A DNA stretch of 55,350 nucleotides from Nanobdellota archaeon (GTDB lineage: Archaea; Nanobdellota; Nanobdellia; SCGC-AAA011-G17; JACPNG01). Below are positions 819 through 49,919 of this stretch, in pieces (position 1 is the first letter of the stretch; every line of letters starts with the position of its first letter). The stretch covers positions 1 to 55,350 of the forward strand of contig JBBSWJ010000029.1 in assembly GCA_038046345.1 (NCBI GenBank). The letters are read 5' to 3'. The notes under the pieces are model-generated. The model worked only from the letters and a program-made list of their open reading frames with translations. It was not told the origin of the DNA and searched no databases. A program made the position numbers and the translations under genes.

Positions 819-3164
819 GTGAATACCAAATTATTATTACTTTTAGTTATAACAATCTCAATTTTTTCTTTTAACTCTAATCTTATTGTTGCAGATATAA
901 ATACGCAATTAAATTCTGAGCTGATTAATGTGACATTATCTCCAGCGGTGGGTGTTGGAGCAACAGTATTCGGAGATCAAATACAGCAAAATAATACAAA
1001 TGTAAGATTTAACTTTACTATTGCTGTTAATGGTACAATTAATTTTACTATAATTAACATAACAGTTCCTCATAATATTACATTTACTGGAGATTTTACA
1101 GTAAATGATACTGATGATGTGCTTGCTGTGGATGAGGATTTTGCAGGTCTAGCTAATGCAACAAATGATACGGGCGAAGGTGGTAATCCATGGGTATTTT
1201 CGAACTCAACAGATGCAGGTGATGATATAAAGTATATACACTGGAATAGTACTGATCCTAATGGAACCGGCGGTGCAGTGATATTTAGCATTAATTTTAC
1301 TGCTAATAATCTAACCGGAAATGTAGATGATGCAAGAATTGATTGGAATATAAGTATCACCTTTGCAGATGGTGGGCATGAAGACCCGAACTCAGCTGCA
1401 AGTGAGAACTCAACAGTAGTATACACATGGGTAGATATGCTTGTACCAAGATTATCTGAAGTTAATGTAACTGATGGGAATGCAACATTAGTTAATGGTA
1501 CTGCATATGGGTTTGAGGCAGATTTTGATGATGATAATGTACAAGTAATGGACCACTTTTCAAATAAAAGTGCTACAGTATATACTACCTTAACAGAAAT
1601 AAATGTTGATCAATTAAATATGTACTACTTATGTAATAGTAGTGTTGGTGAAGCAAATGTAACATTTGCTGCATTCTACAGCAATGTAAGTATGAGTACT
1701 AGTGATTCTGTATCACCATACTTATTTACAGGCACAATTGATCATGCTAACTGTGTAAACACAGAGAATAACGCAACAACATTCTTATTTTCAATAACAG
1801 ATGATGCAAATAGGCATACTTCTGTTAATGATAGCGTAGGTGCAGCAGATGTTAGTGTACCATTTGGATTTGGGGTAATAGGAAATAGCAGTCTCCCAGT
1901 AATAATTGAGGTAAATATAACAGATCAAAGCAGGACACTTAAACTAAACGATAAGGGGTTACGCGGAGGAAATGATTATTTATCATCTAACTCTAGAATG
2001 GACATAAATGTAGATATGAGTGGAAGAGGATTTGCATCAGATTCTGATGGATCAAACCAGTCATTCTTTTACATAACAAACACAACCACCGAATCAAATA
2101 CTCGCTTTGAAGATTGGTTTTCAGAAGGACAACAAATAGGATTGTTAAACATATCTAGGGATATAGACGGCAGTGGTAGTTTAACATCACAATTTAATGG
2201 AACAATACCTAAAGGACTTATAAACGATACTGATGGAACATCTGGAACATCAACAGGTAATTTTACAAATTTCCTGCTATTAATAAATGACTCGCGTGAC
2301 TACACACAACACTTCTTTGGAGTATTTGTTGTGGACGGAGGAGATCCAACAGCTAAAATAACAAGCCCTGCTGATACGAATATTAATGTGTTGAACAGCA
2401 TAAAGTATGGTTGTTCAGGAACTGATAGTGTTAGCGGTATAGCAGAATGTAAGGTGAGTGTATCAAAACCTGATGGAACTGTTATTAGTAAGACTAGCAG
2501 TAATTGTGTTGATCAGACATTCACTAATACTGATACAAATCTACCAGGAGCATACACTGTTGAATGTACAGTTACGGATAGTGTTGGATACACATCTGCT
2601 AAAACAACTGGTGCATTTGATGCTAGTACCTCAGCTGGAACTAGCGGTGACAGTGGCGGTGGCAGTAGTGGTGGAACTGGTACTAGCAGATCTGGAGAGG
2701 AACTAACTTTAGATGCTGATTTGAGTACCTCTGATGCAAGCTTTACTGGTAAAGCTGGTGAAACAAAAGTCTTTAGTTTGAGTGGCGGTGATGCTCATAC
2801 CGTGACATTTGTTGAAGTTACTGAAGATTCTGTAACTATAACAATTGAGAGTTATAAAGCTGAAGTAACATTGAATGTTGGTGAGACTAAAGATGTAGAT
2901 ATGGACGGTGATGGAACACCTAATATTCAAGTAACATTAGAAAGTATTACTAATGGTGTTGCAAAGATCAGCTTTGTAAAACTGTCAGATGTAGTCCCTG
3001 AAGAAGAAACAGAACAAGAACCAAGCACTGAAGAAAAAGAAGAAGGAAAAATAGAAGAAGAGGTTAATAATAACCAAAATGGAAATGGTCTAGTGTGGGT
3101 AATTACAATAATTATTGTGTTATTAATTGTTGTAGGATATTTGTTTGTTAAAAGAAGAAAGTAA
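819..3164 (+). CDS. Large surface (S-layer-like) glycoprotein, copy A: signal peptide, sequon-rich N-terminal region, PKD/Ig-like domain, G/S linker, C-terminal TM plus KRRK tail
   Basis: GTG start preceded by AAGGGGGG. N-terminal hydrophobic signal. 35 N-X-S/T sequons by my count in the first ~520 aa. AYTVECTVTDSVGYT resembles a PKD motif. Tail is LVWVITIIIVLLIVVGYLFVKRRK. Confidence 0.9.
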   Translation: MNTKLLLLLVITISIFSFNSNLIVADINTQLNSELINVTLSPAVGVGATVFGDQIQQNNTNVRFNFTIAVNGTINFTIINITVPHNITFTGDFTVNDTDDVLAVDEDFAGLANATNDTGEGGNPWVFSNSTDAGDDIKYIHWNSTDPNGTGGAVIFSINFTANNLTGNVDDARIDWNISITFADGGHEDPNSAASENSTVVYTWVDMLVPRLSEVNVTDGNATLVNGTAYGFEADFDDDNVQVMDHFSNKSATVYTTLTEINVDQLNMYYLCNSSVGEANVTFAAFYSNVSMSTSDSVSPYLFTGTIDHANCVNTENNATTFLFSITDDANRHTSVNDSVGAADVSVPFGFGVIGNSSLPVIIEVNITDQSRTLKLNDKGLRGGNDYLSSNSRMDINVDMSGRGFASDSDGSNQSFFYITNTTTESNTRFEDWFSEGQQIGLLNISRDIDGSGSLTSQFNGTIPKGLINDTDGTSGTSTGNFTNFLLLINDSRDYTQHFFGVFVVDGGDPTAKITSPADTNINVLNSIKYGCSGTDSVSGIAECKVSVSKPDGTVISKTSSNCVDQTFTNTDTNLPGAYTVECTVTDSVGYTSAKTTGAFDASTSAGTSGDSGGGSSGGTGTSRSGEELTLDADLSTSDASFTGKAGETKVFSLSGGDAHTVTFVEVTEDSVTITIESYKAEVTLNVGETKDVDMDGDGTPNIQVTLESITNGVAKISFVKLSDVVPEEETEQEPSTEEKEEGKIEEEVNNNQNGNGLVWVITIIIVLLIVVGYLFVKRRK

Positions 3165-3311
3165 CCTTTTGTGTTAATGTCATAATAGCTGAGATAAAGA
3201 AAGTACTAACGGAATGACTGTTTTAGGTTATACAGTAATTTTATTAAGAAGCATACTACTTTAATAATCAAACCAAAATAGGCGGTTAAGTTTATTAAAA
3301 CCTGGTGGAAA

Positions 3312-3713
3312 ATGACTAAACAAGGACAAGAAGATCAAACAACCATGAATCATGTATACGAAAATGGTTTGGAAAATACAGTAAGGCTAGAGCTATTGCA
3401 AAGTAGATTAGGAAATGCTAGAAAAAGGCAATTAGCAGTTTATATCAGAGCAGCAGCAAGAACAATTTTACCAGTTGTAGGTTTTGTTGCTGTTAGTGGT
3501 GGTATAGCTAAGTGTAATGATTATTTATTTGATAACAGTGGTTTAGCTGAATTGATTACAATTGTGACTGTTGGTACTGCTGGTTGGATATTAAGCACTA
3601 GTGGTGCAGTAAAAGACTACTGCTGGTTGGTTAGTGATGCAATAGATTCTATAAGAGATGCAAATATGATGATTAGACATTACAGAAAACAACTCACTGA
3701 ATTAGAGCAATAA
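3312..3713 (+). CDS. Hypothetical small two-TM membrane protein, cassette copy B (identical to 279..680)
   Basis: Protein identical to copy A, with the same upstream sequence. Confidence 0.7.
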   Translation: MTKQGQEDQTTMNHVYENGLENTVRLELLQSRLGNARKRQLAVYIRAAARTILPVVGFVAVSGGIAKCNDYLFDNSGLAELITIVTVGTAGWILSTSGAVKDYCWLVSDAIDSIRDANMMIRHYRKQLTELEQ

Positions 3714-3851
3714 ACATTTCTTTTATTTTTTTATATCACCTAATTTTTTACACAAATGATTTTTTTTAGAAACATTTAAATATAAGTTACTCTTTTAATT
3801 TCCTAAGGTGATAGTTATTACAAAAAAAATTGGTGTAAGGGGGGATTTTCT

Positions 3852-21693: not shown

Positions 21694-21987
21694 GAGTAGG
21701 GTAGGCATAAGCCGCCTTCTGTCAGTTCCCGTGATGGTCGAACTGAGGTGACATTCAACTTAGCACCCTTTTTGGGCTTGCACCGATTGGGGCTCACCGT
21801 TTCATCATGCCAGTATCATTGTCAGCTGTTTAACAGCATCATCCTAAATAAAGGCTGTATCGTTTCTGTGTGGTTGCCTTTTCTTTCGAAAACTTCCTTT
21901 TCAGAAAGCAACCCATAAGAGCTCTTAACGAGCTGGTGGGCGGACTTTCCTCAGTCATAGACCGTAAGTCACCTACCTACCTACTAC
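21694..21987 (-). ncRNA. rnpB: RNase P RNA (archaeal)
   Basis: The reverse complement carries CR-I GAGGAAAGTCCGCCC (plus-strand coordinates 21938..21953). It also carries the CR-V/P4 3' strand ACAGAAGGCGGCTTATG (21706..21722). Terminal P1 pairing is GTAGGTAGG... with ...CCTACCCTAC. The segment is a local GC-rich island without an ORF, and a TATA-like AAATTTAAAAG lies about 25 nt upstream on the minus strand. The ends are approximate. Confidence 0.85.
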
Positions 21988-22016
21988 TAAAACACACTAT
22001 CTTTTAGCTTTTAAAT

Positions 22017-23873
22017 TTATCTGATAAACTCTTTAACGGCATCACGAAACCAAAACAGCAGATCATTTACATAGTTTCCTTCGCTGCTAAATGACAAAGA
22101 AACAGTGGCTCCATTGTTGAGGTTTGGAATGTCCCCCCAGAATAGAGGAAATACTGCTGGCTGATTAAAGCTTAGACTTTCACTAAGTGTATCTTGTTTT
22201 TCTGATTCATATAAATATCTAAGTCTTAAACCAAGTGAAGGCACTTCTATAGAAATGCCTCCGTCCACTTGCCCGTGCTGGTCTAGTTTTGCTGATGGAT
22301 GGAAGCCAATTAATTCATCATATAATCTTCTAGTTAGGTATACATCAAAATAAGATGAACCACTAGTGTATCTGCTGGCTATTCCTAATGTTTCTTGTTC
22401 AAACAAGACATCTGGCAGGCATAATCTTTCTTTAGTGCCCAATTGTCTATTAAAACTCCCCATAAAACTTTCATTGGAGCATTTTGCCCAACCGTTAAAT
22501 AGTCTTGTTGGATCTTCAGCTTGAAGCAGGACAAATAATTCTAAATCTAAATCTGAAATATCAAATGAACTAAAATCACCAGTCCATCCTGTTTGAGTAA
22601 TAATACCATAACCACCTAATGTATCTGGGTGTATGCTTAGCCTAGCTCTACCGGTCATAGAAACAAAATTAGCATAATCAAATTCTACAAAATCTCCAAT
22701 TGCTCCAACAATCAAGTCTAAACTAACATTTTCAAAGAGATTAATGCTATCTGGTGTTATGTATGCGCCTAACTCCCCGCCCCATAGACTGTGAGTAGAC
22801 TCGCTGGAAGTTTTTGTACTAACGGTTGTCCTTTCAAATGGATTGCTTATACTTAGATGATCAAGAAACTTTCTAGGCGGCAGCTCACTCTCTGCCAGGC
22901 TAACTGATAAAGTATCCCCGCTATTACTGGTTAAGTATTTCCATCCGCCACTAAGACCTAGTATGAATCTTGGTAATCTAAATTCTTTAAGACCATAAAC
23001 TAATAATCTCTGATTATGCTCTGTGCTGCTTTCTATTACTGTATCTCTGTCAAGATGATAAGCAATTAATGGTCTTGAGATTGTCCATACACTATGAGAA
23101 TCTGTTGTTAGTTCTGTATCTTTATGGACTGTGCTATCAAAATCTATACCTAGCTTACTTGATATACTATGTTTAGTTAAACCTCTTTCGTGTTGTATAT
23201 GATCTTCTAATCTTTGTGATTCAACACCTAGCTGCAAGTTTGAGTCATTAAAAAATTGGTTAGTATGGGATATATTACTGCCTGAAGTATTAGCTTGCCT
23301 CCTGGCAGAGTTAAATGTAAACTCTGGTAAGATGGACATGCCACGCTGCCAATTAGCTATCGAATATGATCTACGGTTGCCGCCAGCGATGGAAGAGTAT
23401 CCTATAAGCTCAGCTCTGAATAGCGGTCTTGTATTGCCAGTATTGTCAATTATTCTTATTGTTGAGATGTTATTATCAAAGAGGCTGTTTGTTGTTCCTT
23501 CTTCAAATGGTGATATTTCAGATGCTACGCCGGGAAGATTTAACTCAAGCCTGTACGTTGTTTCAATGTCGGGTATAATTTCTGATAATTTAGCTCTTAG
23601 TGCTTCTGCTTCTTTTTCAAGTAGTTTGATGTATTCATACCTGTAATACTCAAGCCCAAATTTATCTTTTATGTCTTGTAAGACATGAAGCCGGTATTGT
23701 CCGTTTATTAGATCATTTACTATTTCTTGGTTTTTAGTTGTTTCGCTGATAAAGTTAGGATCTTGGTTCTGTTTGGGATTAGGGACATTTTGTGCGTGAG
23801 AAATACCGGTGTACAAAACTATTGCTGCAAGCGCTGAACTTAAACCTTTACTCAAAAAATTAGTTAAAGCCAC
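22017..23873 (-). CDS. Large secreted beta-rich protein of unknown function (paralog of 47889..49919)
   Basis: Signal peptide MALTNFLSKGLSSALAAIVLYTGISHA|Q and no TM anchor. Many alternating-hydrophobic strand-like segments. Its C-terminal blocks align with the 676-aa protein. Confidence 0.8.
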   Translation of the reverse strand: MALTNFLSKGLSSALAAIVLYTGISHAQNVPNPKQNQDPNFISETTKNQEIVNDLINGQYRLHVLQDIKDKFGLEYYRYEYIKLLEKEAEALRAKLSEIIPDIETTYRLELNLPGVASEISPFEEGTTNSLFDNNISTIRIIDNTGNTRPLFRAELIGYSSIAGGNRRSYSIANWQRGMSILPEFTFNSARRQANTSGSNISHTNQFFNDSNLQLGVESQRLEDHIQHERGLTKHSISSKLGIDFDSTVHKDTELTTDSHSVWTISRPLIAYHLDRDTVIESSTEHNQRLLVYGLKEFRLPRFILGLSGGWKYLTSNSGDTLSVSLAESELPPRKFLDHLSISNPFERTTVSTKTSSESTHSLWGGELGAYITPDSINLFENVSLDLIVGAIGDFVEFDYANFVSMTGRARLSIHPDTLGGYGIITQTGWTGDFSSFDISDLDLELFVLLQAEDPTRLFNGWAKCSNESFMGSFNRQLGTKERLCLPDVLFEQETLGIASRYTSGSSYFDVYLTRRLYDELIGFHPSAKLDQHGQVDGGISIEVPSLGLRLRYLYESEKQDTLSESLSFNQPAVFPLFWGDIPNLNNGATVSLSFSSEGNYVNDLLFWFRDAVKEFIR

Positions 23874-24063
23874 TATTATTGAATAGTGAGTAGCTATTTA
23901 AGCTTTTTTTAAACATAATCAAAATACATAATGCATAATCTACTTATTACACAGCTAGATTATTGTTGTTTAACTGAAGAATATGTTTCTTTTCACCAAA
24001 CTGATATAACAATACCCTTTTATATTTTATTAGAACTTTTTTTTAAAAAAATTCGGGAGAAAA

Positions 24064-24918
24064 GTGGCAATTATAGAAATAATCAAAGTCCAAGCAGTGT
24101 TTAGTGGAATTATGCTAATAATATGCTGGTTTTATTGGCTAACCATAAAAGATAAGGTGGTATTATACCAAAAAACACTAATAACCGTGTTATTCCTAAT
24201 AATCTTTGTAGTGGCAGCGCAGGTTATCAACCTGTTTTTTAACAATTCTGCATTAATCATAGCTCAATGGGTGATAACGTTAGTTGTGGCTGCAATAGTT
24301 TGTATAACTGCATTTGCTATTTTGGATGGTCTTAAAAAAGGTAGAAAGCAGGAATTTGACAGTATCTTAGCAAGCAACCAAAATTATGAAGAAGCTTTTT
24401 TCAAGAAAAAATTCATTATACCTCAAGTAGTACAGTTAAGAGAGCTTAAAGCTAAGATCATAAAATATGAAGAACAAAAAATAGGTTTAGAACAAGATAT
24501 TGATAATACAAGAACACGGTTGAGTGAGTTAGAATTAAAAGTTGAATCAAAAAATGCTGCTTTTACTGAACGTGAAAAGAACATGAAGAATAAAGAAATG
24601 ACCTTAGATAAATTAGAAAAAAAGCTGAACTACGACGAAGAAGAAATAAAGGAAGAACTAGATGAAATAAAAGATCTTAAAATTAAACTTAGAGAAAAAC
24701 ACAAAGAGATAAAATCAATAAAAAACCAAAATAAAGAATTTATCAACCTAAAAGAAAAAGAAAAATACCTAAAAACTACTGAAAAAGAATTGTTATCCCT
24801 TAAAAAAAGTTTAGAAGAAGAACAAGAAAGAATTGAAGATCAACAAGATAAACTTATCAGTGAGCGAAGGAAACTAGAAAAGTTAAAAACAAAGGAGATT
24901 CATCAAGATGATGTATGA
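24064..24918 (+). CDS. Hypothetical membrane protein with a long K/E-rich coiled-coil C-terminal domain
   Basis: GTG start after GGGAG. Three N-terminal TM segments, then about 180 aa of heptad-like K/E-rich sequence. Confidence 0.7.
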   Translation: MAIIEIIKVQAVFSGIMLIICWFYWLTIKDKVVLYQKTLITVLFLIIFVVAAQVINLFFNNSALIIAQWVITLVVAAIVCITAFAILDGLKKGRKQEFDSILASNQNYEEAFFKKKFIIPQVVQLRELKAKIIKYEEQKIGLEQDIDNTRTRLSELELKVESKNAAFTEREKNMKNKEMTLDKLEKKLNYDEEEIKEELDEIKDLKIKLREKHKEIKSIKNQNKEFINLKEKEKYLKTTEKELLSLKKSLEEEQERIEDQQDKLISERRKLEKLKTKEIHQDDV

Positions 24919-25216
24919 ACTGTTAATAATGATAATTGGATCAGTGGGCTTAATAGTTCTTTCTTTAATATTCCTAATAAAAGTGAAACCATTTGAAGAC
25001 ATGAAGCATAAACAGGGGTTGAGTTTATTGTTAATGAGCGGGTTATCATTTTTATTATTGATATTATTAGAAGGCATAAAAACAATATATACTAATCTAT
25101 ATCTAATAAAATGGCTCCAGGTTAGTTGGATTATTACAACACAGTACTTGGTGGTTTTACCAGTTATGGTACTATTATTGTTTGTAGCTTTGTATAGCCT
25201 ACCAAAAGAAACATGA
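24908..25216 (+). CDS. Hypothetical small polytopic membrane protein
   Basis: 102-aa ORF overlapping the upstream gene by 11 nt. Three hydrophobic segments. Confidence 0.55.
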   Translation: MMYELLIMIIGSVGLIVLSLIFLIKVKPFEDMKHKQGLSLLLMSGLSFLLLILLEGIKTIYTNLYLIKWLQVSWIITTQYLVVLPVMVLLLFVALYSLPKET

Positions 25217-28703: not shown

Positions 28704-28801
28704 CGCCCAAGCCGGGAATCGAACCCGGATCGCAGCCGTTCTACAAAACCATAAATGAATTTTTCGACAGGGCTACGTGATAGCCGTTACACTACTTGGG
28801 C
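28704..28801 (-). tRNA. tRNA-Asp (anticodon GTC) with a ~26-nt intron in the anticodon loop
   Basis: Reverse complement folds with acceptor GCCCAAG/CTTGGGC, discriminator G and T arm CCGGG-TTCGATT-CCCGG. The anticodon stem TAGCC/GGCTG encloses 33 nt beginning CTGTC. The exact splice sites were not resolved. Confidence 0.75.
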
Positions 28802-31802: not shown

Positions 31803-31930
31803 CCCGCTGTAGTTTAGTGGTAGAACATTCGGCTGTAGCTAGTAGCGCTGTTTTGACCTTAGCACTTGCCAGGGATGATAAATATTCAGCAGAACCCGGA
31901 AAGTCGCTGGTTCGAATCCAGCCAGCGGGA
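31803..31930 (+). tRNA. tRNA-Tyr (anticodon GTA) with a ~56-nt intron
   Basis: Acceptor CCCGCTG/CAGCGGG gives a C1-G72 pair, with discriminator A. D stem GTTT/GAAC. The anticodon stem TTCGG/CCGGA encloses 63 nt beginning CTGTAG. T arm GCTGG-TTCGAAT-CCAGC. Confidence 0.85.
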
Positions 31931-33557: not shown

Positions 33558-34799
33558 ATGGATGATAAAGGGTATTACCAAAAACGTTGGTACAAAGGTC
33601 TAATCCCAATAGATATACTATTCCCAAATAAACAATTTGGCGGGATTTATCACTTAGGAATTCATATTTTGTATGACCTTATTATGAGGGACGTAAGGTT
33701 TACAGCAAAAAAAGTGTATAGTGACTCTGGGAGACTAACAAGCAAACTAATAGGGATAAGCATATCATATGAAAGAGATTTTAAAAGAATACCAAAATTA
33801 CTAAAGGAAAATAATATCAAGATCACAAAAGATAGAGAACAAATAATATTTTGCGGCGGAACTGCAGTAATGTTAAACACAAAATCTATAGAACCAATAG
33901 CAGACTTTATAGTTCTTGGAGATATAGAAGCAATAATGCCTGAAGTTTTAAAAAAATACAAAGAACAAGGAAAGGAACAATTTCTTAAAGAAATAAAAGA
34001 CATAGAAGGGGTTTACATACCAGGCGGAAAAAAAACAGTAAAGGAAATTGAAGATTTAGATTTAGTCGCATATCCATTGTACCAACCGCTGCCAGAAAAT
34101 ATGAATAACAAATTTGTTTTTGGAGAAACATTCATGCTTGAAATTGAAAGATCCTGCCCATACAGCTGTTCATTTTGTGTTATTCCGGCCGTCAATAAAA
34201 AAAATAAAATAAGAAGCCTTGAAAGCATAAAGAAAATAATAGATGCAGGAATTAAGATAAATAAAAGAGAACATGTAACAATATATAGCCCAGCGTTTAC
34301 ACATCCAAAAAGAAAAGAAATACTAAAATACTTACTTGAAAAAGGCTTAAGATTTTCACTGCCATCAATAAGAGCAGAAGTAATAGACGAAGAATTACTT
34401 GAATTAATACAACAAGGCGGAGAAAAAAGCATAACAATAGCACCAGAAAGCACTGAAAGATTAAGAAAAGATTTAGGGAAAGCTGTATCAAATAAAGTTT
34501 ATGAGAATATTATAAACTTAGCAAAAAATCATGGTCTAAAAGTAAAATTGTATGCTCTGATAGGCACACCTGGAATGTCTGATCTAGATGTAGAGGAATT
34601 ATGCCGGTGGTTAAATCAACAAAAATGCTACGTTTCAATTAATCCTCTAGTCCCTAAAAAACTTACAGAATTATCATACTATAAATTTGACACGGAAAAA
34701 ATAAAAAAACAAGCAGAGATAGTAAAGAAAAATCTAAAAGTAAAATACAAAATAGCTAATATTAATAATTCTTACGAAGAGTATATAGCAGGAATATGA
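33558..34799 (+). CDS. Radical SAM protein (COG1032-like, with an N-terminal B12-binding-like domain)
   Basis: ERSCPYSCSFCVIP contains the CxxxCxxC motif, preceded by a Rossmann-like N-terminal domain. ATGA overlap with the downstream gene. Confidence 0.85.
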   Translation: MDDKGYYQKRWYKGLIPIDILFPNKQFGGIYHLGIHILYDLIMRDVRFTAKKVYSDSGRLTSKLIGISISYERDFKRIPKLLKENNIKITKDREQIIFCGGTAVMLNTKSIEPIADFIVLGDIEAIMPEVLKKYKEQGKEQFLKEIKDIEGVYIPGGKKTVKEIEDLDLVAYPLYQPLPENMNNKFVFGETFMLEIERSCPYSCSFCVIPAVNKKNKIRSLESIKKIIDAGIKINKREHVTIYSPAFTHPKRKEILKYLLEKGLRFSLPSIRAEVIDEELLELIQQGGEKSITIAPESTERLRKDLGKAVSNKVYENIINLAKNHGLKVKLYALIGTPGMSDLDVEELCRWLNQQKCYVSINPLVPKKLTELSYYKFDTEKIKKQAEIVKKNLKVKYKIANINNSYEEYIAGI

Positions 34800-35323
34800 G
34801 ATATGAAAATCATCTAATATTAAGAATTGGAATATTAGCCGGGCTGTTTGTTTTGCCAGCTGATATATTTTATAAGATTCTGTTAAAACCAACACTATTC
34901 ATAACTGAAAAAATTCTTCTAAAATATAATCCTATCGTTATAGGAACAAAGATAGTTATAGGGGAACATAGCCTTAATTTTGTTCCAGCATGTACAGCCA
35001 CATTAGCGTACTTGCTACTTGCAGGATTGGTGCTTACAACAAGAGATATGACATTAATAAAAGGATTGAAAGTATACTTTGTTGGTGGCACTATCATATT
35101 TATTGCTAATATTATACGTGTAGCAGGGCTAGCGGTATTATTAATAGAAAAAGGGTATAACACATTCAATAAAGTGCATTTATTTATCTGGGATGGACTC
35201 TCGAGTGTATTTGTGGTTTTAGTGTGGATATTCTTAGTGTATTATTTTAGCATAAAAGAAATCCCAATATACAGTGATATTAAGAAACTGATACGACACC
35301 TAAAGTTATCAAGGAAACAATAA
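34796..35323 (+). CDS. Miniature exosortase/archaeosortase-family protein (175 aa)
   Basis: Polytopic membrane protein. Candidate catalytic residues appear in the family order: FVPACTATLAYL (Cys), FIANIIRVAGLAVL (NxxR Arg) and KVHLFIWDG (His). Confidence 0.65.
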   Translation: MRYENHLILRIGILAGLFVLPADIFYKILLKPTLFITEKILLKYNPIVIGTKIVIGEHSLNFVPACTATLAYLLLAGLVLTTRDMTLIKGLKVYFVGGTIIFIANIIRVAGLAVLLIEKGYNTFNKVHLFIWDGLSSVFVVLVWIFLVYYFSIKEIPIYSDIKKLIRHLKLSRKQ

Positions 35324-47153: not shown

Positions 47154-47897
47154 ATGTACCATGAACTGTTTTATGCTCTTGTCGCGGTGATAGCAGTCAG
47201 CTTAATTTCATTAGTAGGGGTTTTTAGTTTGTATATCAGACCTAAAGTGATCAGCAAGGTGTTATTGCTATTTGTAAGTTTTGCAGCAGGTGCTTTAATT
47301 GGTGATGCATTTCTTCATTTAATCCCTCAAATAGCTGGGGACGGATTCACAACAGAAACAGCGTTGTATATCCTTTCAGGTATTTTGTTGTTTTTTATTA
47401 TTGAAAATATAATCCACTGGCATCATTGCCATACTCATGGATGCGGGCATGGTACTCCAAGATTTGTATGGACTAATCTAATAGGGGATAGTGTTCATAA
47501 TTTTATTGATGGTATTATAATAATGGCAAGTTTTATGATAAATGTTCAAGTTGGTATTGCAACAACGATTGCAGTAATACTCCATGAGATCCCGCAAGAA
47601 ATTGGAGATTTTGCAATACTGATGCACGGCGGGTTATCAAAAAAGAAGGCGCTTTTGTTTAACTTTTTCTCTGCTTCGTTTGCGATTATTGGTGCTTTAC
47701 TATTATACTTTGTTAAATGGATAAGCGGATTAACAAATTTTTTGATTCCATTTACTGCTGGAAGTTTTATTTATATTGCCGCTGCTGATTTAATCCCAGA
47801 GTTACATAAAGGAGATGTAACCGTTAAATCTTTTTTACATATTGTCTTATTTGTTATTGGGGTGGGCGTGATGGCGTTGCTTTTGTTTTTAGAATAA
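47154..47897 (+). CDS. zupT: ZIP-family divalent metal transporter (ZupT-like)
   Basis: HEIPQEIGDFAILM is the ZIP signature, and a His-rich loop HWHHCHTHGCGHG is present. Start taken at MYHELF, about 25 nt downstream of the TATA box at 47123..47133 (the ORF extends to 47115). Confidence 0.85.
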   Translation: MYHELFYALVAVIAVSLISLVGVFSLYIRPKVISKVLLLFVSFAAGALIGDAFLHLIPQIAGDGFTTETALYILSGILLFFIIENIIHWHHCHTHGCGHGTPRFVWTNLIGDSVHNFIDGIIIMASFMINVQVGIATTIAVILHEIPQEIGDFAILMHGGLSKKKALLFNFFSASFAIIGALLLYFVKWISGLTNFLIPFTAGSFIYIAAADLIPELHKGDVTVKSFLHIVLFVIGVGVMALLLFLE

Positions 47898-49919
47898 TTT
47901 ATCAAGCATCCATTCTATTCCATGTTCTATAAATGATATACCATCTAAGGGGGCTACAGAAACATAAACTGTTTCTTCATCGCCGTCTTTTTGCAATACT
48001 ACATATGGCCTCCAGGTAGTTGCAACCCCCAATCCTACAGAGAATGTCTGATCTTGATTTCCTTCCTTAAGAAAGAATGATTGACTATAATCTAGGAGTA
48101 CGCCTGATAGGTTTAAGTTTGCTGAGAGATCTAAAATACTTAAATTTTCATCTATGCCTACAACTGGATGTATTCCAAATGGTCCCTCAGATAAATACAT
48201 GCCCAAGTTATATCTGCTATCGTATCTAAGGCTTACACCACTGAAATCTTGACAGTTAAGTAATTTAGCAAATTCTATTCTGCTTCTTACTTGCTGCCTT
48301 TGGAATAGCTCTATATCTCTATGATCAAAATAATCACTAAACTGTTCTAATAATTCTGATTCATTATCCGAGGTAATTGGTATAAATAACTCTGCATCTT
48401 GTACTGTTTCCAATGAGAATATTCTGTCACCTTCATTATAAGTTAAGTGAGTTTGTAATAATGATCTTGGTATAAAACCCCATTGTGGGATTTGAGTGCG
48501 ATTACCTAAGTGATATGATGATTTGTCAGTATCTCTCGCAATACCAAGTATTGTTCTTCTGGCTATACCAAATACTTTTGTATCATTTAAAAGATATGCA
48601 GAAAATGCTAAGCCTACTTCCTGGTGTTCTGATCTTATTTCTGTTTTTTCTTCGCTTTCTTCTATTTCTATTGCGTCATCTATGAGCGTTAAATACTCAG
48701 TTATAGTTCTTCTAGGCAAGCTGATTCTTAAGTCTGTGCTGCTAACTGTATCTTTTTCTCTAGTGCTTCTTAAAAGTGTGCCTATGTATCCTCCAATGTC
48801 TAGAGAGAATCCACGTGATAATTCAATCTGCCCTCCGATGTAAATAAACACATCATCATGAATTCTTTTATTTTTTTCTGTGTCCATGCTTAAACTAGTT
48901 TCTTGTTCAGTTAATGTTGTGACTGGAGAAATGCCTATTGCTCCGTCTGTATTAAAATTAATTCTGTATCTCTCTGTTGTTATCTTTTTTTTTTCTGTGT
49001 CTATACCAAATAATGCATATCCACCATACCGTGTTCTATCTTTTTGTATTCGCCATTCATTTGAAGTAAACTCTTTAACGTTTTCAGTTGTTAATCTTAA
49101 ATCAATGTCAGCTGCGATATGATCTTCTGTTATAGCTACTATCCCTTCATGAGTTGGTGTATCAGATAAAACCATTGCTGATAATCCAACATTCATTCCG
49201 TAACCTAAACCGTATCTACTGGCCATGCTTATGGTTGTGTTGCCTTCTTTGTAGGTAATATATCCGATTAAGTCAGCTGTGTACTTGAAAGGAATATGGA
49301 AATTGTTTATTGTTGCTTCTAAGTGGCTTCCAGTTTTTTCTATTGTGGCTATACCACCTTGTAGATCGTCTGCTAAGCCTATTACCCCGCTAAGCACGTC
49401 TTCTAAAGTAAATCCGTCAATAAGCTCAAAAAGACCTAGTGGGTTTTGTCCATGTAATGTCTGGTTTATCCCTCTTAATATGTCTTCTCCAGTAAGGTCG
49501 TTTATTGGTGTGCCTGCAAACTTTAGTGTTTCACTGCTTATCTCTCCGTACTGTTCGTATGGTATTCCGGCTATAACAAAGTCGTTGTGAAAGATGTCAT
49601 AATATAAGTTTTTTCCTATACCATAAACAAGACTGTTATTTCTTATTGATGGATGAATCAATGAGCTAGTATCTTTTTGGTCTACTCTTATGTTGCTCAA
49701 TAAGTATCCATCACCTTCTGCTAATAGCTGGTATAGACTTGGTGGTTTTGGACTTGTTGTGTTATCTTCAGTTGCTTGTACATCATAAGATTGATAACCA
49801 TCTTTTTTTAGTGTTTCATTTAATGATGTATCTGCGTTTGCTGGTCTAGGTAATAAGCTTAAAATAACAGTTGCTCTTGCTACGTGTTTGAATAATTTAT
49901 TTTTAATTGATTTTTTCAT
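47889..49919 (-). CDS. Large secreted beta-rich protein of unknown function (paralog of 22017..23873)
   Basis: Signal peptide MKKSIKNKLFKHVARATVILSLLPRPANA|D and no TM anchor. GVSLRYDSRYNLGMYLSEGPFGIHPVVGID aligns with GIASRYTSGSSYFDVYLT...LIGFHPSAKLD of the 618-aa protein. Confidence 0.8.
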   Translation of the reverse strand: MKKSIKNKLFKHVARATVILSLLPRPANADTSLNETLKKDGYQSYDVQATEDNTTSPKPPSLYQLLAEGDGYLLSNIRVDQKDTSSLIHPSIRNNSLVYGIGKNLYYDIFHNDFVIAGIPYEQYGEISSETLKFAGTPINDLTGEDILRGINQTLHGQNPLGLFELIDGFTLEDVLSGVIGLADDLQGGIATIEKTGSHLEATINNFHIPFKYTADLIGYITYKEGNTTISMASRYGLGYGMNVGLSAMVLSDTPTHEGIVAITEDHIAADIDLRLTTENVKEFTSNEWRIQKDRTRYGGYALFGIDTEKKKITTERYRINFNTDGAIGISPVTTLTEQETSLSMDTEKNKRIHDDVFIYIGGQIELSRGFSLDIGGYIGTLLRSTREKDTVSSTDLRISLPRRTITEYLTLIDDAIEIEESEEKTEIRSEHQEVGLAFSAYLLNDTKVFGIARRTILGIARDTDKSSYHLGNRTQIPQWGFIPRSLLQTHLTYNEGDRIFSLETVQDAELFIPITSDNESELLEQFSDYFDHRDIELFQRQQVRSRIEFAKLLNCQDFSGVSLRYDSRYNLGMYLSEGPFGIHPVVGIDENLSILDLSANLNLSGVLLDYSQSFFLKEGNQDQTFSVGLGVATTWRPYVVLQKDGDEETVYVSVAPLDGISFIEHGIEWMLDKLF

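Follow-up and report, generated by a model that had tools for sequence, protein, structure and literature searches.

DPANN archaea probably live attached to other cells, and the proteins through which they make that contact are almost unknown; their genomes are generally rich in lineage-specific surface proteins. Closest among described systems to the one considered here are the surface-layer (S-layer)-type proteins with a PACE-CTERM signal and their sorting enzyme pacearchaeosortase, the orphan exported proteins of DPANN genomes, the beta-pore-forming proteins (aerolysin/ETX-MTX2, leukocidin/haemolysin and MACPF/CDC) and the barrels that match the Pfam model OMP_b-brl (PF13505; OMP, outer membrane protein). 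The subject is a pair of genes, P0001 and P0002, in a 55,350-nucleotide (nt) stretch of DNA from a Nanobdellota archaeon (contig JBBSWJ010000029.1 of assembly GCA_038046345.1), which as a whole is called the window. Their products are best explained, with about an even chance of this being right, as a lineage-specific family of Sec-exported, unanchored and fast-evolving envelope or cell-contact proteins. A first-pass annotation of the window had singled out both open reading frames (ORFs), which stand in the ORF list with exactly the same coordinates, lengths and (−) strand, and had raised the possibility that they encode membrane beta-barrels or pore-formers directed at a host membrane.

Two distant paralogs and their few relatives

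Judged from their alignment, P0001 and P0002 are true, very distant and old paralogs. BLASTP finds 22% identity over 412 amino acids (aa), with E=0.004 for the pair, and Smith-Waterman comparison of the mature parts scores 109 against 44 +/- 6 for composition-preserving shuffles, made globally or in 20-residue blocks (z=10.4). When P0001 is compared by phmmer with filters off (--max) to the 1972 ORFs of the genome, the two other family members come top with E=0.012 and 0.035, the next match standing at 0.36, and the two proteins rank each other first. The genome holds no further paralog.

The paralogy had been noticed earlier by eye in the C-terminal thirds. It is real, and the two motifs then read, G[IV]..RY.S and G.HP...D, are present in the alignment, but the similarity is wider than a third of each protein, as the two are collinear for some 470 residues, starting at about residue 150 in P0001 and 211 in P0002 and running on to the C-terminal end. 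It is the N-terminal 120–180 residues that differ between the paralogs, P0001 being helical there in its low-confidence model. The best-conserved blocks are [FY]..[ED]LIGY......GN and a D-T-P-T followed some 10 residues on by E-[DN]-H-I, with VYGG.E..LP, G...RY.S and G.HP...D as further ones. Internal repeats were looked for as well and set aside as unconvincing (among about 50 pairs of segments z did not exceed 4.9).

That the proteins have no recognisable domain, as had been said of them, is borne out by searches of Pfam, NCBIfam, PHROGs and PDB sequences, which gave nothing significant for either. The family profile, compared with PDB sequences, did reach the extracellular immunoglobulin (Ig)-like domain of SLC15A2, a peptide transporter of mammals (E=0.0048, profile positions 137–270, corresponding to residues 205–319 of the relative P0007 described below), a match taken as chance, with E=0.078 for P0007 alone and no match for P0001 or P0002. 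It spans the most conserved blocks (LIGY..GN, DTPT and E[DN]HI) and, probably chance as it is, would fit a beta-sandwich at that place.

A word-indexed search of 5.8 billion clusters brought back self matches only, whether either protein or a four-sequence profile was the query. Exhaustive HMMER comparison of a three-sequence profile with 1.84 billion representatives returned three clusters, namely P0001, P0002 and a 239-aa fragment, the full-length relative of which, P0007, lies on an ENA metagenome contig (called at 725 aa, within a full ORF of 761 aa that has a signal peptide). P0007 shares 63% identity with a truncated copy in G006, a genome of a sister genus in the same taxonomic family, and P0002 is 23% identical to both (E=1.4e-14 for the G006 match). 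Among the 240 genomes of the order the family is found in the window's own genome (G000, two copies) and in G006 (one copy), and these two are also the only ones to match among 60 relatives and 17 genomes of the taxonomic family. JGI metagenome contigs scanned with P0001 and P0002 yielded nothing, and literature on DPANN archaea with pore-forming or beta-barrel topics held nothing on the family. A protein identical to P0001 is recorded in three assemblies. The family is nearly orphan and confined to two genera.

Export, anchoring and composition

Both N-termini, MALTNFLSKGLSSALAAIVLYTGISHA↓Q in P0001 and MKKSIKNKLFKHVARATVILSLLPRPANA↓D in P0002, read as the n, h and c regions of a Sec signal peptide, and the tripartite signal (a positive n-region, a hydrophobic h-region and small residues at −3 and −1) is present in all four family members, its layout being kept despite identity of about 20%. 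In P0002 the n-region is Lys-rich and the h-region short, at 8–10 residues; its orthologs have a stronger signal peptide. An archaeal signal peptidase I is encoded in the genome (Table 1). Sequence layout, relatives and peptidase gene thus agree on the cleavable signal peptides proposed in the first-pass annotation (..SHA↓Q and ..ANA↓D), and we infer Sec export of both proteins, for which the case is well motivated.

Beyond the N-terminus neither protein has a hydrophobic segment, the top 19-residue Kyte-Doolittle window reaching at most 1.23, so the earlier statement that there is no transmembrane anchor holds. A lipobox Cys, a C-terminal transmembrane helix and a match to PACE-CTERM (NCBIfam) were also looked for in both, and none was found. 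With no transmembrane segment, lipobox or PACE-CTERM, the mature protein would lie outside the membrane, either held non-covalently in or under the S-layer or released. Because a pacearchaeosortase is encoded in the same window, the lack of a PACE-CTERM on P0001 and P0002 is informative: the family would not be a substrate of that anchoring route. The PACE-CTERM proteins of the genome, encoded in the same window as their sorting enzyme, are like the family in being exported and acidic and in having the same extracellular-type composition; the family differs from them in having neither a C-terminal transmembrane or sorting signal nor an NCBIfam match.

The composition of P0001 and P0002 is strongly unlike that of the cytoplasmic proteome. 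Their mature parts are acidic (isoelectric point 4.6–5.0) and rich in Ser, Thr and Gly, with 3.2–4.3% Lys in the two proteins compared with 8.7% genome-wide, and Cys at 0.1–0.3%.

Evolutionary rate

The ZIP transporter encoded beside P0002 is 44–55% identical across the taxonomic family, compared with 23% for P0002 and its sole relative. In a strain of about 92% nucleotide identity, met in groundwater runs X9 and X10, both genes are intact, P0001 with one net 3-nt deletion and P0002 with no indels. Changed codons are 17 non-synonymous and 16 synonymous in P0001 and 20 and 15 in P0002, compared with 9 and 24 in the neighbouring genes (the AI-2E transporter gene and apt), giving p=0.011 in Fisher's test for the pooled family against the neighbours and a non-synonymous to synonymous ratio of roughly 0.3 in the family and 0.1 in the neighbours (about 3-fold), though only the 40 variant rows with the best support in each query were counted, in place of full alignments, and the figures are indicative only. 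They point to real genes on which selection is relaxed or in part diversifying, as it commonly is in exposed proteins. Purifying selection has not ceased, given a ratio of about 0.3 and unbroken frames.

The same data bear on whether the proteins might be cytoplasmic orphans, or the genes in the course of being lost, which is very unlikely. Orphan status and the raised non-synonymous rate would suit such an account, as would the weak h-regions, the 10-residue hydrophobicity maxima being 2.39 in P0001 and 1.81 in P0002 when most other exported proteins of the genome exceed 3. However, four members have kept the signal-peptide layout in spite of their divergence, the composition is not that of cytoplasmic proteins, frames of 1.9–2.0 kb have stayed open across about 8% nucleotide divergence at a ratio of about 0.3, and the paralogs have both been kept since before their 78% sequence divergence.

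Fold and the question of a barrel or pore

AlphaFold2, run with four-sequence alignments, gives a mean predicted local distance difference test (pLDDT) score of 30.1 for P0001 and 29.5 for P0002. The two low-confidence models agree only coarsely, on a mostly beta core and on 7–8 short C-terminal strands followed by a helix. The alternation of hydrophobic and polar residues, from which the proteins had been called beta-rich, is present but modest (period-2 hydrophobic moment z=1.5–2.3 against shuffles, at the 87th–95th percentile of the genome's proteins); otherwise their beta-rich character comes from the two low-confidence models. The amphipathic helical C-terminus, also described earlier, is clear in P0001, with a helical moment (muH) of 0.66 at the 99.8th percentile, but moderate in P0002, with 0.44 at the 93rd. 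The C-termini read ...AVKEFIR, ...WMLDKLF and ...IEDLFKK and are helical in both low-confidence models; as the proteins end in a predicted amphipathic helix, with R, F and K as last residues, there is no beta-signal.

A secreted beta-barrel or pore-former, with the mature proteins oligomerising and amphipathic hairpins or a C-terminal eight-strand barrel inserting into the membrane of a host cell or into an unrecognised outer layer of the archaeon, is an unlikely explanation. It would accord with proteins that are unanchored and, by prediction, exported, and in the C-terminal module both low-confidence models have some eight short amphipathic strands in a row. OMP strands, and the tails ...VGVGLTWRF and ...VGVGVTYRP of archaeal OMP_b-brl proteins, have look-alikes in the family in strings such as GVSLRYDS, LGLRLRYLY and FSVGLGVATTWRP, and P0002 has a weak, marginal Pfam match to DUF2490 of the barrel clan (E=0.15). 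However, no OMP or pore-forming-toxin Pfam family (aerolysin/ETX-MTX2, leukocidin, MACPF/CDC) matches at E<=10, the predicted terminal helix stands where a beta-signal would be expected, the period-2 amphipathicity is only modest, and the best-conserved hairpin is charged on both faces in P0001 and P0007, as read from the alignment. Comparison of the low-confidence P0002 model with the PDB by Foldseek brought up herpesvirus gB, secretins and porins at TM-scores of at most 0.12 and E>=0.04, and these matches were set aside as noise. A composition log-odds score trained on archaeal barrels placed the C-terminal modules in the barrel range; it was rejected as non-discriminating because the genome's S-layer-type proteins, to which a barrel-like composition is common, score just as high.

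With the beta-pore-forming proteins P0001 and P0002 share predicted export, a soluble-looking and by prediction mostly beta make-up and the lack of an anchor, and acting on the membrane of a different cell would fit an episymbiotic way of life. They differ from them in the lack of any Pfam match at that threshold and of a conserved Ser/Thr-rich amphipathic insertion hairpin.

OMP_b-brl proteins elsewhere in the order

The search for OMP_b-brl served as a positive control for whether barrels are detectable in these organisms. PF13505 has matches in 25 of the order's 240 genomes, above the curated cut-off in 7, and among control genomes only diderm bacteria respond to it. The order's OMP_b-brl proteins begin with a Sec signal peptide, and their C-termini are aromatic in the bacterial manner (...RLGF, ...KYEF, ...TWRF or ...EYRF); four of them score 29–46 bits on re-scan, the one at locus L073 joins a Big_9 Ig domain to a barrel-like tail, and the copy in G014 is on the same 382-kb contig as an archaeal RNase P RNA. 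Locus L067 (G134:C24) should not count as an archaeal barrel, being clearly bacterial contamination of the bin: its contig has a GC content of 0.67 and overlapping long ORFs. Judged by the features above, the others have the look of native, OMP-like barrels of DPANN archaea that have a single membrane, unrelated to P0001 and P0002.

That the order encodes such barrels makes a barrel reading of P0001 and P0002 not absurd for these archaea. Yet PF13505, though it detects real barrels elsewhere in the order, finds no candidate in the host genome, and the family has no similarity to the order's OMP_b-brl proteins (Smith-Waterman maximum z of 4.2 in 30 comparisons; hhalign P=0.15–0.8). The two groups are alike in their Sec signal peptides, in being Gly-rich, Lys-poor and Cys-poor, and in their short amphipathic strands, of which the family has a predicted module of about eight at its C-terminal end. 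They differ in that nothing in hidden Markov model (HMM), Smith-Waterman or hhalign comparison connects them, in that the family ends in an amphipathic helix and not in a terminal aromatic beta-strand, and in size, the family proteins being 2–3 times longer than small barrels.

The barrel or pore-former proposed in the first-pass annotation has no positive support; with no family match, a terminal helix, modest periodicity and no likeness to the order's barrels, it is a speculation and an improbable one. Also quite improbable is that P0001 and P0002 represent a sequence-orphan class of secreted membrane-inserting beta-proteins, whose C-terminal eight-strand module, by itself or once oligomerised, would sit in the membrane of the host cell to which the archaeon is attached, as a conduit or anchor. 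If true, they would be functional cousins of the order's OMP_b-brl proteins, and transmembrane beta-structure would be made by an archaeon without beta-barrel assembly machinery (BAM).

Genomic context

The archaeal RNase P RNA, the genome of 821 kb (35 contigs, 97% complete) and the pacearchaeosortase (Table 1) together indicate a Pacearchaeota-type host, so that the DPANN-type cell supposed earlier stands. DNA of the window is present in groundwater metagenomes. P0001 has as neighbours apt, the RNase P RNA gene and a pair of genes for a membrane and a coiled-coil protein; P0002 is flanked on one side by the convergent ZIP transporter gene, with a 9-nt overlap, and on the other by Sua5, Rad50 and Mre11. 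Each of the two stands alone among housekeeping genes, with a GC content like that of the remainder of the window. No positional counterpart of P0001 lies beside the RNase P RNA in 12 related genomes, which have other genes there, and none of P0002 beside the ZIP gene in 7. The relatives in G006 and on the ENA contig have different neighbours again, SRP54 and an ATPase_2/DUF234 gene.

The lack of a fixed position among relatives and a patchy distribution over two genera would be in keeping with genes carried by a mobile element or provirus, such as one for a virion or receptor-binding protein inserted at variable sites. Such an origin is scarcely probable at all, as against it there is no PHROG match at E<=1 and no tblastn match to the family in 50,697 phage records, the flanks (apt, RNase P RNA, ZIP, Sua5 and Rad50) are housekeeping ones, no integrase or other mobile-element family matches among the scanned genes next to either paralog, and each gene, of ordinary GC for the window, is alone and not part of a module.

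The position of the candidate promoter of P0001 (Table 1) would imply a leaderless or near-leaderless mRNA. The RNase P RNA starts 32 nt past the P0001 stop on the same strand (21696–22019 of the window), a spacing at which read-through from P0001 into the RNase P RNA gene is conceivable. In relatives the RNase P RNA has other upstream neighbours, so its pairing with P0001 is local. In G005 it adjoins apparent counterparts of the gene pair at 24064..25216 with no P0001-like gene between, as seen by eye. In the window this pair encodes a 284-aa membrane protein with a long coiled coil (weak SMC/Rad50-like matches) and a 102-aa protein with about three transmembrane segments; the G005 look-alike was judged by N-terminal sequence and gene sizes.

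At their 3′ ends the ZIP gene and P0002 overlap (47889–47897), which shows how tightly the genome is packed and leaves no room for a terminator between the genes. In G009 (locus L057, G009:C69) a different exported protein, of 548 aa and with the hydrophobic tail ...LKISLPFLK, is encoded downstream of ZIP next to a 172-aa multi-pass membrane protein. The two could be a protein with a sorting signal and the sortase belonging to it, and the arrangement suggests that surface-protein genes vary at the spot after ZIP within the taxonomic family.

Elsewhere in the window Rfam finds two tRNA genes that ARAGORN did not call. Introns in tRNA genes are common in archaea, and these two genes, of 98 and 128 nt, presumably carry them.

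Table 1. Positions of the features discussed, in window numbering unless another sequence is named
Feature	Sequence	Position	Strand	Details
Gene P0001	window	22017..23873	(−)	618 aa, GTG start; more divergent paralog; ORF list and translation
Gene P0002	window	47889..49919	(−)	676 aa, ATG start; paralog closer to the sister-genus relative
Predicted Sec signal peptide, P0001	window	23793..23873	(−)	residues 1–27, SHA↓Q; putative cleavage at an A-x-A-like site read from sequence
Predicted Sec signal peptide, P0002	window	49833..49919	(−)	residues 1–29, ANA↓D; putative cleavage
Candidate B recognition element (BRE)/TATA AAAGCTTAAATAG	window	23894..23906	(−)	about 25 nt upstream of the P0001 GTG; putative, read from sequence
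Family core, P0001	window	22020..23426	(−)	about residues 150–618, collinear with P0002 211–676; BLASTP and MAFFT
Family core, P0002	window	47892..49289	(−)	residues 211–676; blocks ADLIGY..GN, DTPT, EDHI; alignments
C-terminal module, P0001	window	22020..22394	(−)	about residues 494–618; 7–8 short amphipathic strands, then amphipathic helix; low confidence; from DSSP of the low-confidence model, helical moment, and alignment with P0002 and the P0007 module
C-terminal module, P0002	window	47892..48251	(−)	about residues 557–676; eight predicted strands, terminal helix ending ...KLF; from DSSP of the low-confidence model, alignment, and helical moment 0.44
Archaeal RNase P RNA	window	21696..21984	(−)	full length; Rfam RF00373, 144 bits against gathering score 84; outside the family
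Membrane/coiled-coil gene pair	window	24064..25216		284-aa and 102-aa products
tRNA gene	window	28704..28801	(−)	98 nt; Rfam
tRNA gene	window	31803..31930	(+)	128 nt; Rfam
Pacearchaeosortase	window	34796..35323		NF033505, 105 bits against cut-off 80
Archaeal signal peptidase I	G000:C14	14512..14787		TIGR02228, 70.7 bits against cut-off 51.85
Look-alike of the 24064..25216 pair	L037 (G005)	2379..3628		
548-aa exported protein and 172-aa membrane protein	L057 (G009:C69)	1648..3844		downstream of ZIP
OMP_b-brl locus	L065	715..1338	(−)	
OMP_b-brl locus	L066	1243..2082	(+)	
OMP_b-brl locus	L068	1498..2166	(−)	
OMP_b-brl locus	L069	1498..2325	(−)	
OMP_b-brl locus	L070	1384..2865	(−)	
OMP_b-brl locus	L072	1459..2046	(−)	
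OMP_b-brl locus	L073	238..1923	(+)	Big_9 Ig domain and barrel-like tail
OMP_b-brl locus	L074	1131..2633	(−)	

Proposed role

On the explanation preferred here, each gene would be a single unit with its own TATA-type promoter, and the precursor, carrying a Sec-type signal peptide, would cross the membrane via SecYEG and have its signal removed by the archaeal type I signal peptidase. What remains, a mature protein of 590–650 residues, acidic, Lys-poor and almost Cys-free, would then be held in or under the S-layer or be released. Its putative architecture is a variable N-terminal module (helical in P0001) and a mostly beta core of about 470 residues, with some eight strands capped by an amphipathic helix. 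It would serve as an exposed component of the envelope or of cell contact, in binding or recognition, and contact with host cells, viruses or competitors would be what drives its rapid sequence turnover. We do not think that the family is an enzyme or an obligate pore.

An exported enzyme, or a scavenging or ligand-binding protein of new fold, is a somewhat unlikely alternative, one example being a soluble eight-strand calycin-like barrel with a helix that binds host lipids or nutrients that the reduced archaeon cannot make. Soluble calycin-type barrels are laid out as a meander of eight strands with a helix after it at the C-terminus, which is a lead only; predicted export and the lack of an anchor would suit such a protein, the four members share the polar blocks D-T-P-T, E-[DN]-H-I about 10 residues later and LIGY..GN, and a genome of 0.82 Mb implies dependence on external nutrients. 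However, no enzyme or binding-protein family matches, and there is one conserved His only and no clear catalytic constellation. Scavenging proteins are, moreover, usually conserved and transporter-linked, whereas this family is near-orphan, fast-evolving and without a transporter partner, the ZIP gene beside P0002 being convergent with it and the pairing not being kept in relatives.

Several points weigh against an envelope or cell-contact family as well. The h-regions, as given above, are weaker than those of most other exported proteins of the genome, and RNA-seq runs holding the gene were looked for and none was found. No partner gene or kept neighbourhood points to a role, and a binding or contact role is, by inference, the default reading for orphan exported proteins of DPANN archaea. 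A protein without an anchor might just as well be released as an effector.

With those orphan exported proteins P0001 and P0002 share the tiny genome of the host, a signal peptide, the absence of a known domain, few relatives, a variable position and a beta-rich tail. They differ from them in forming a two-copy family that goes back to an old duplication, and in having neither adhesin-type repeats nor a giant partner gene.

The observation that about a tenth of the order's genomes have matches to the barrel model may matter more than P0001 and P0002 themselves, and it makes the general question raised by the barrel reading a real and testable one in this lineage. As known so far, these two add one more orphan surface-protein family. 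They are a reasonable candidate for part of the exposed interface through which such an archaeon may contact its host, and a target for expression and localisation.

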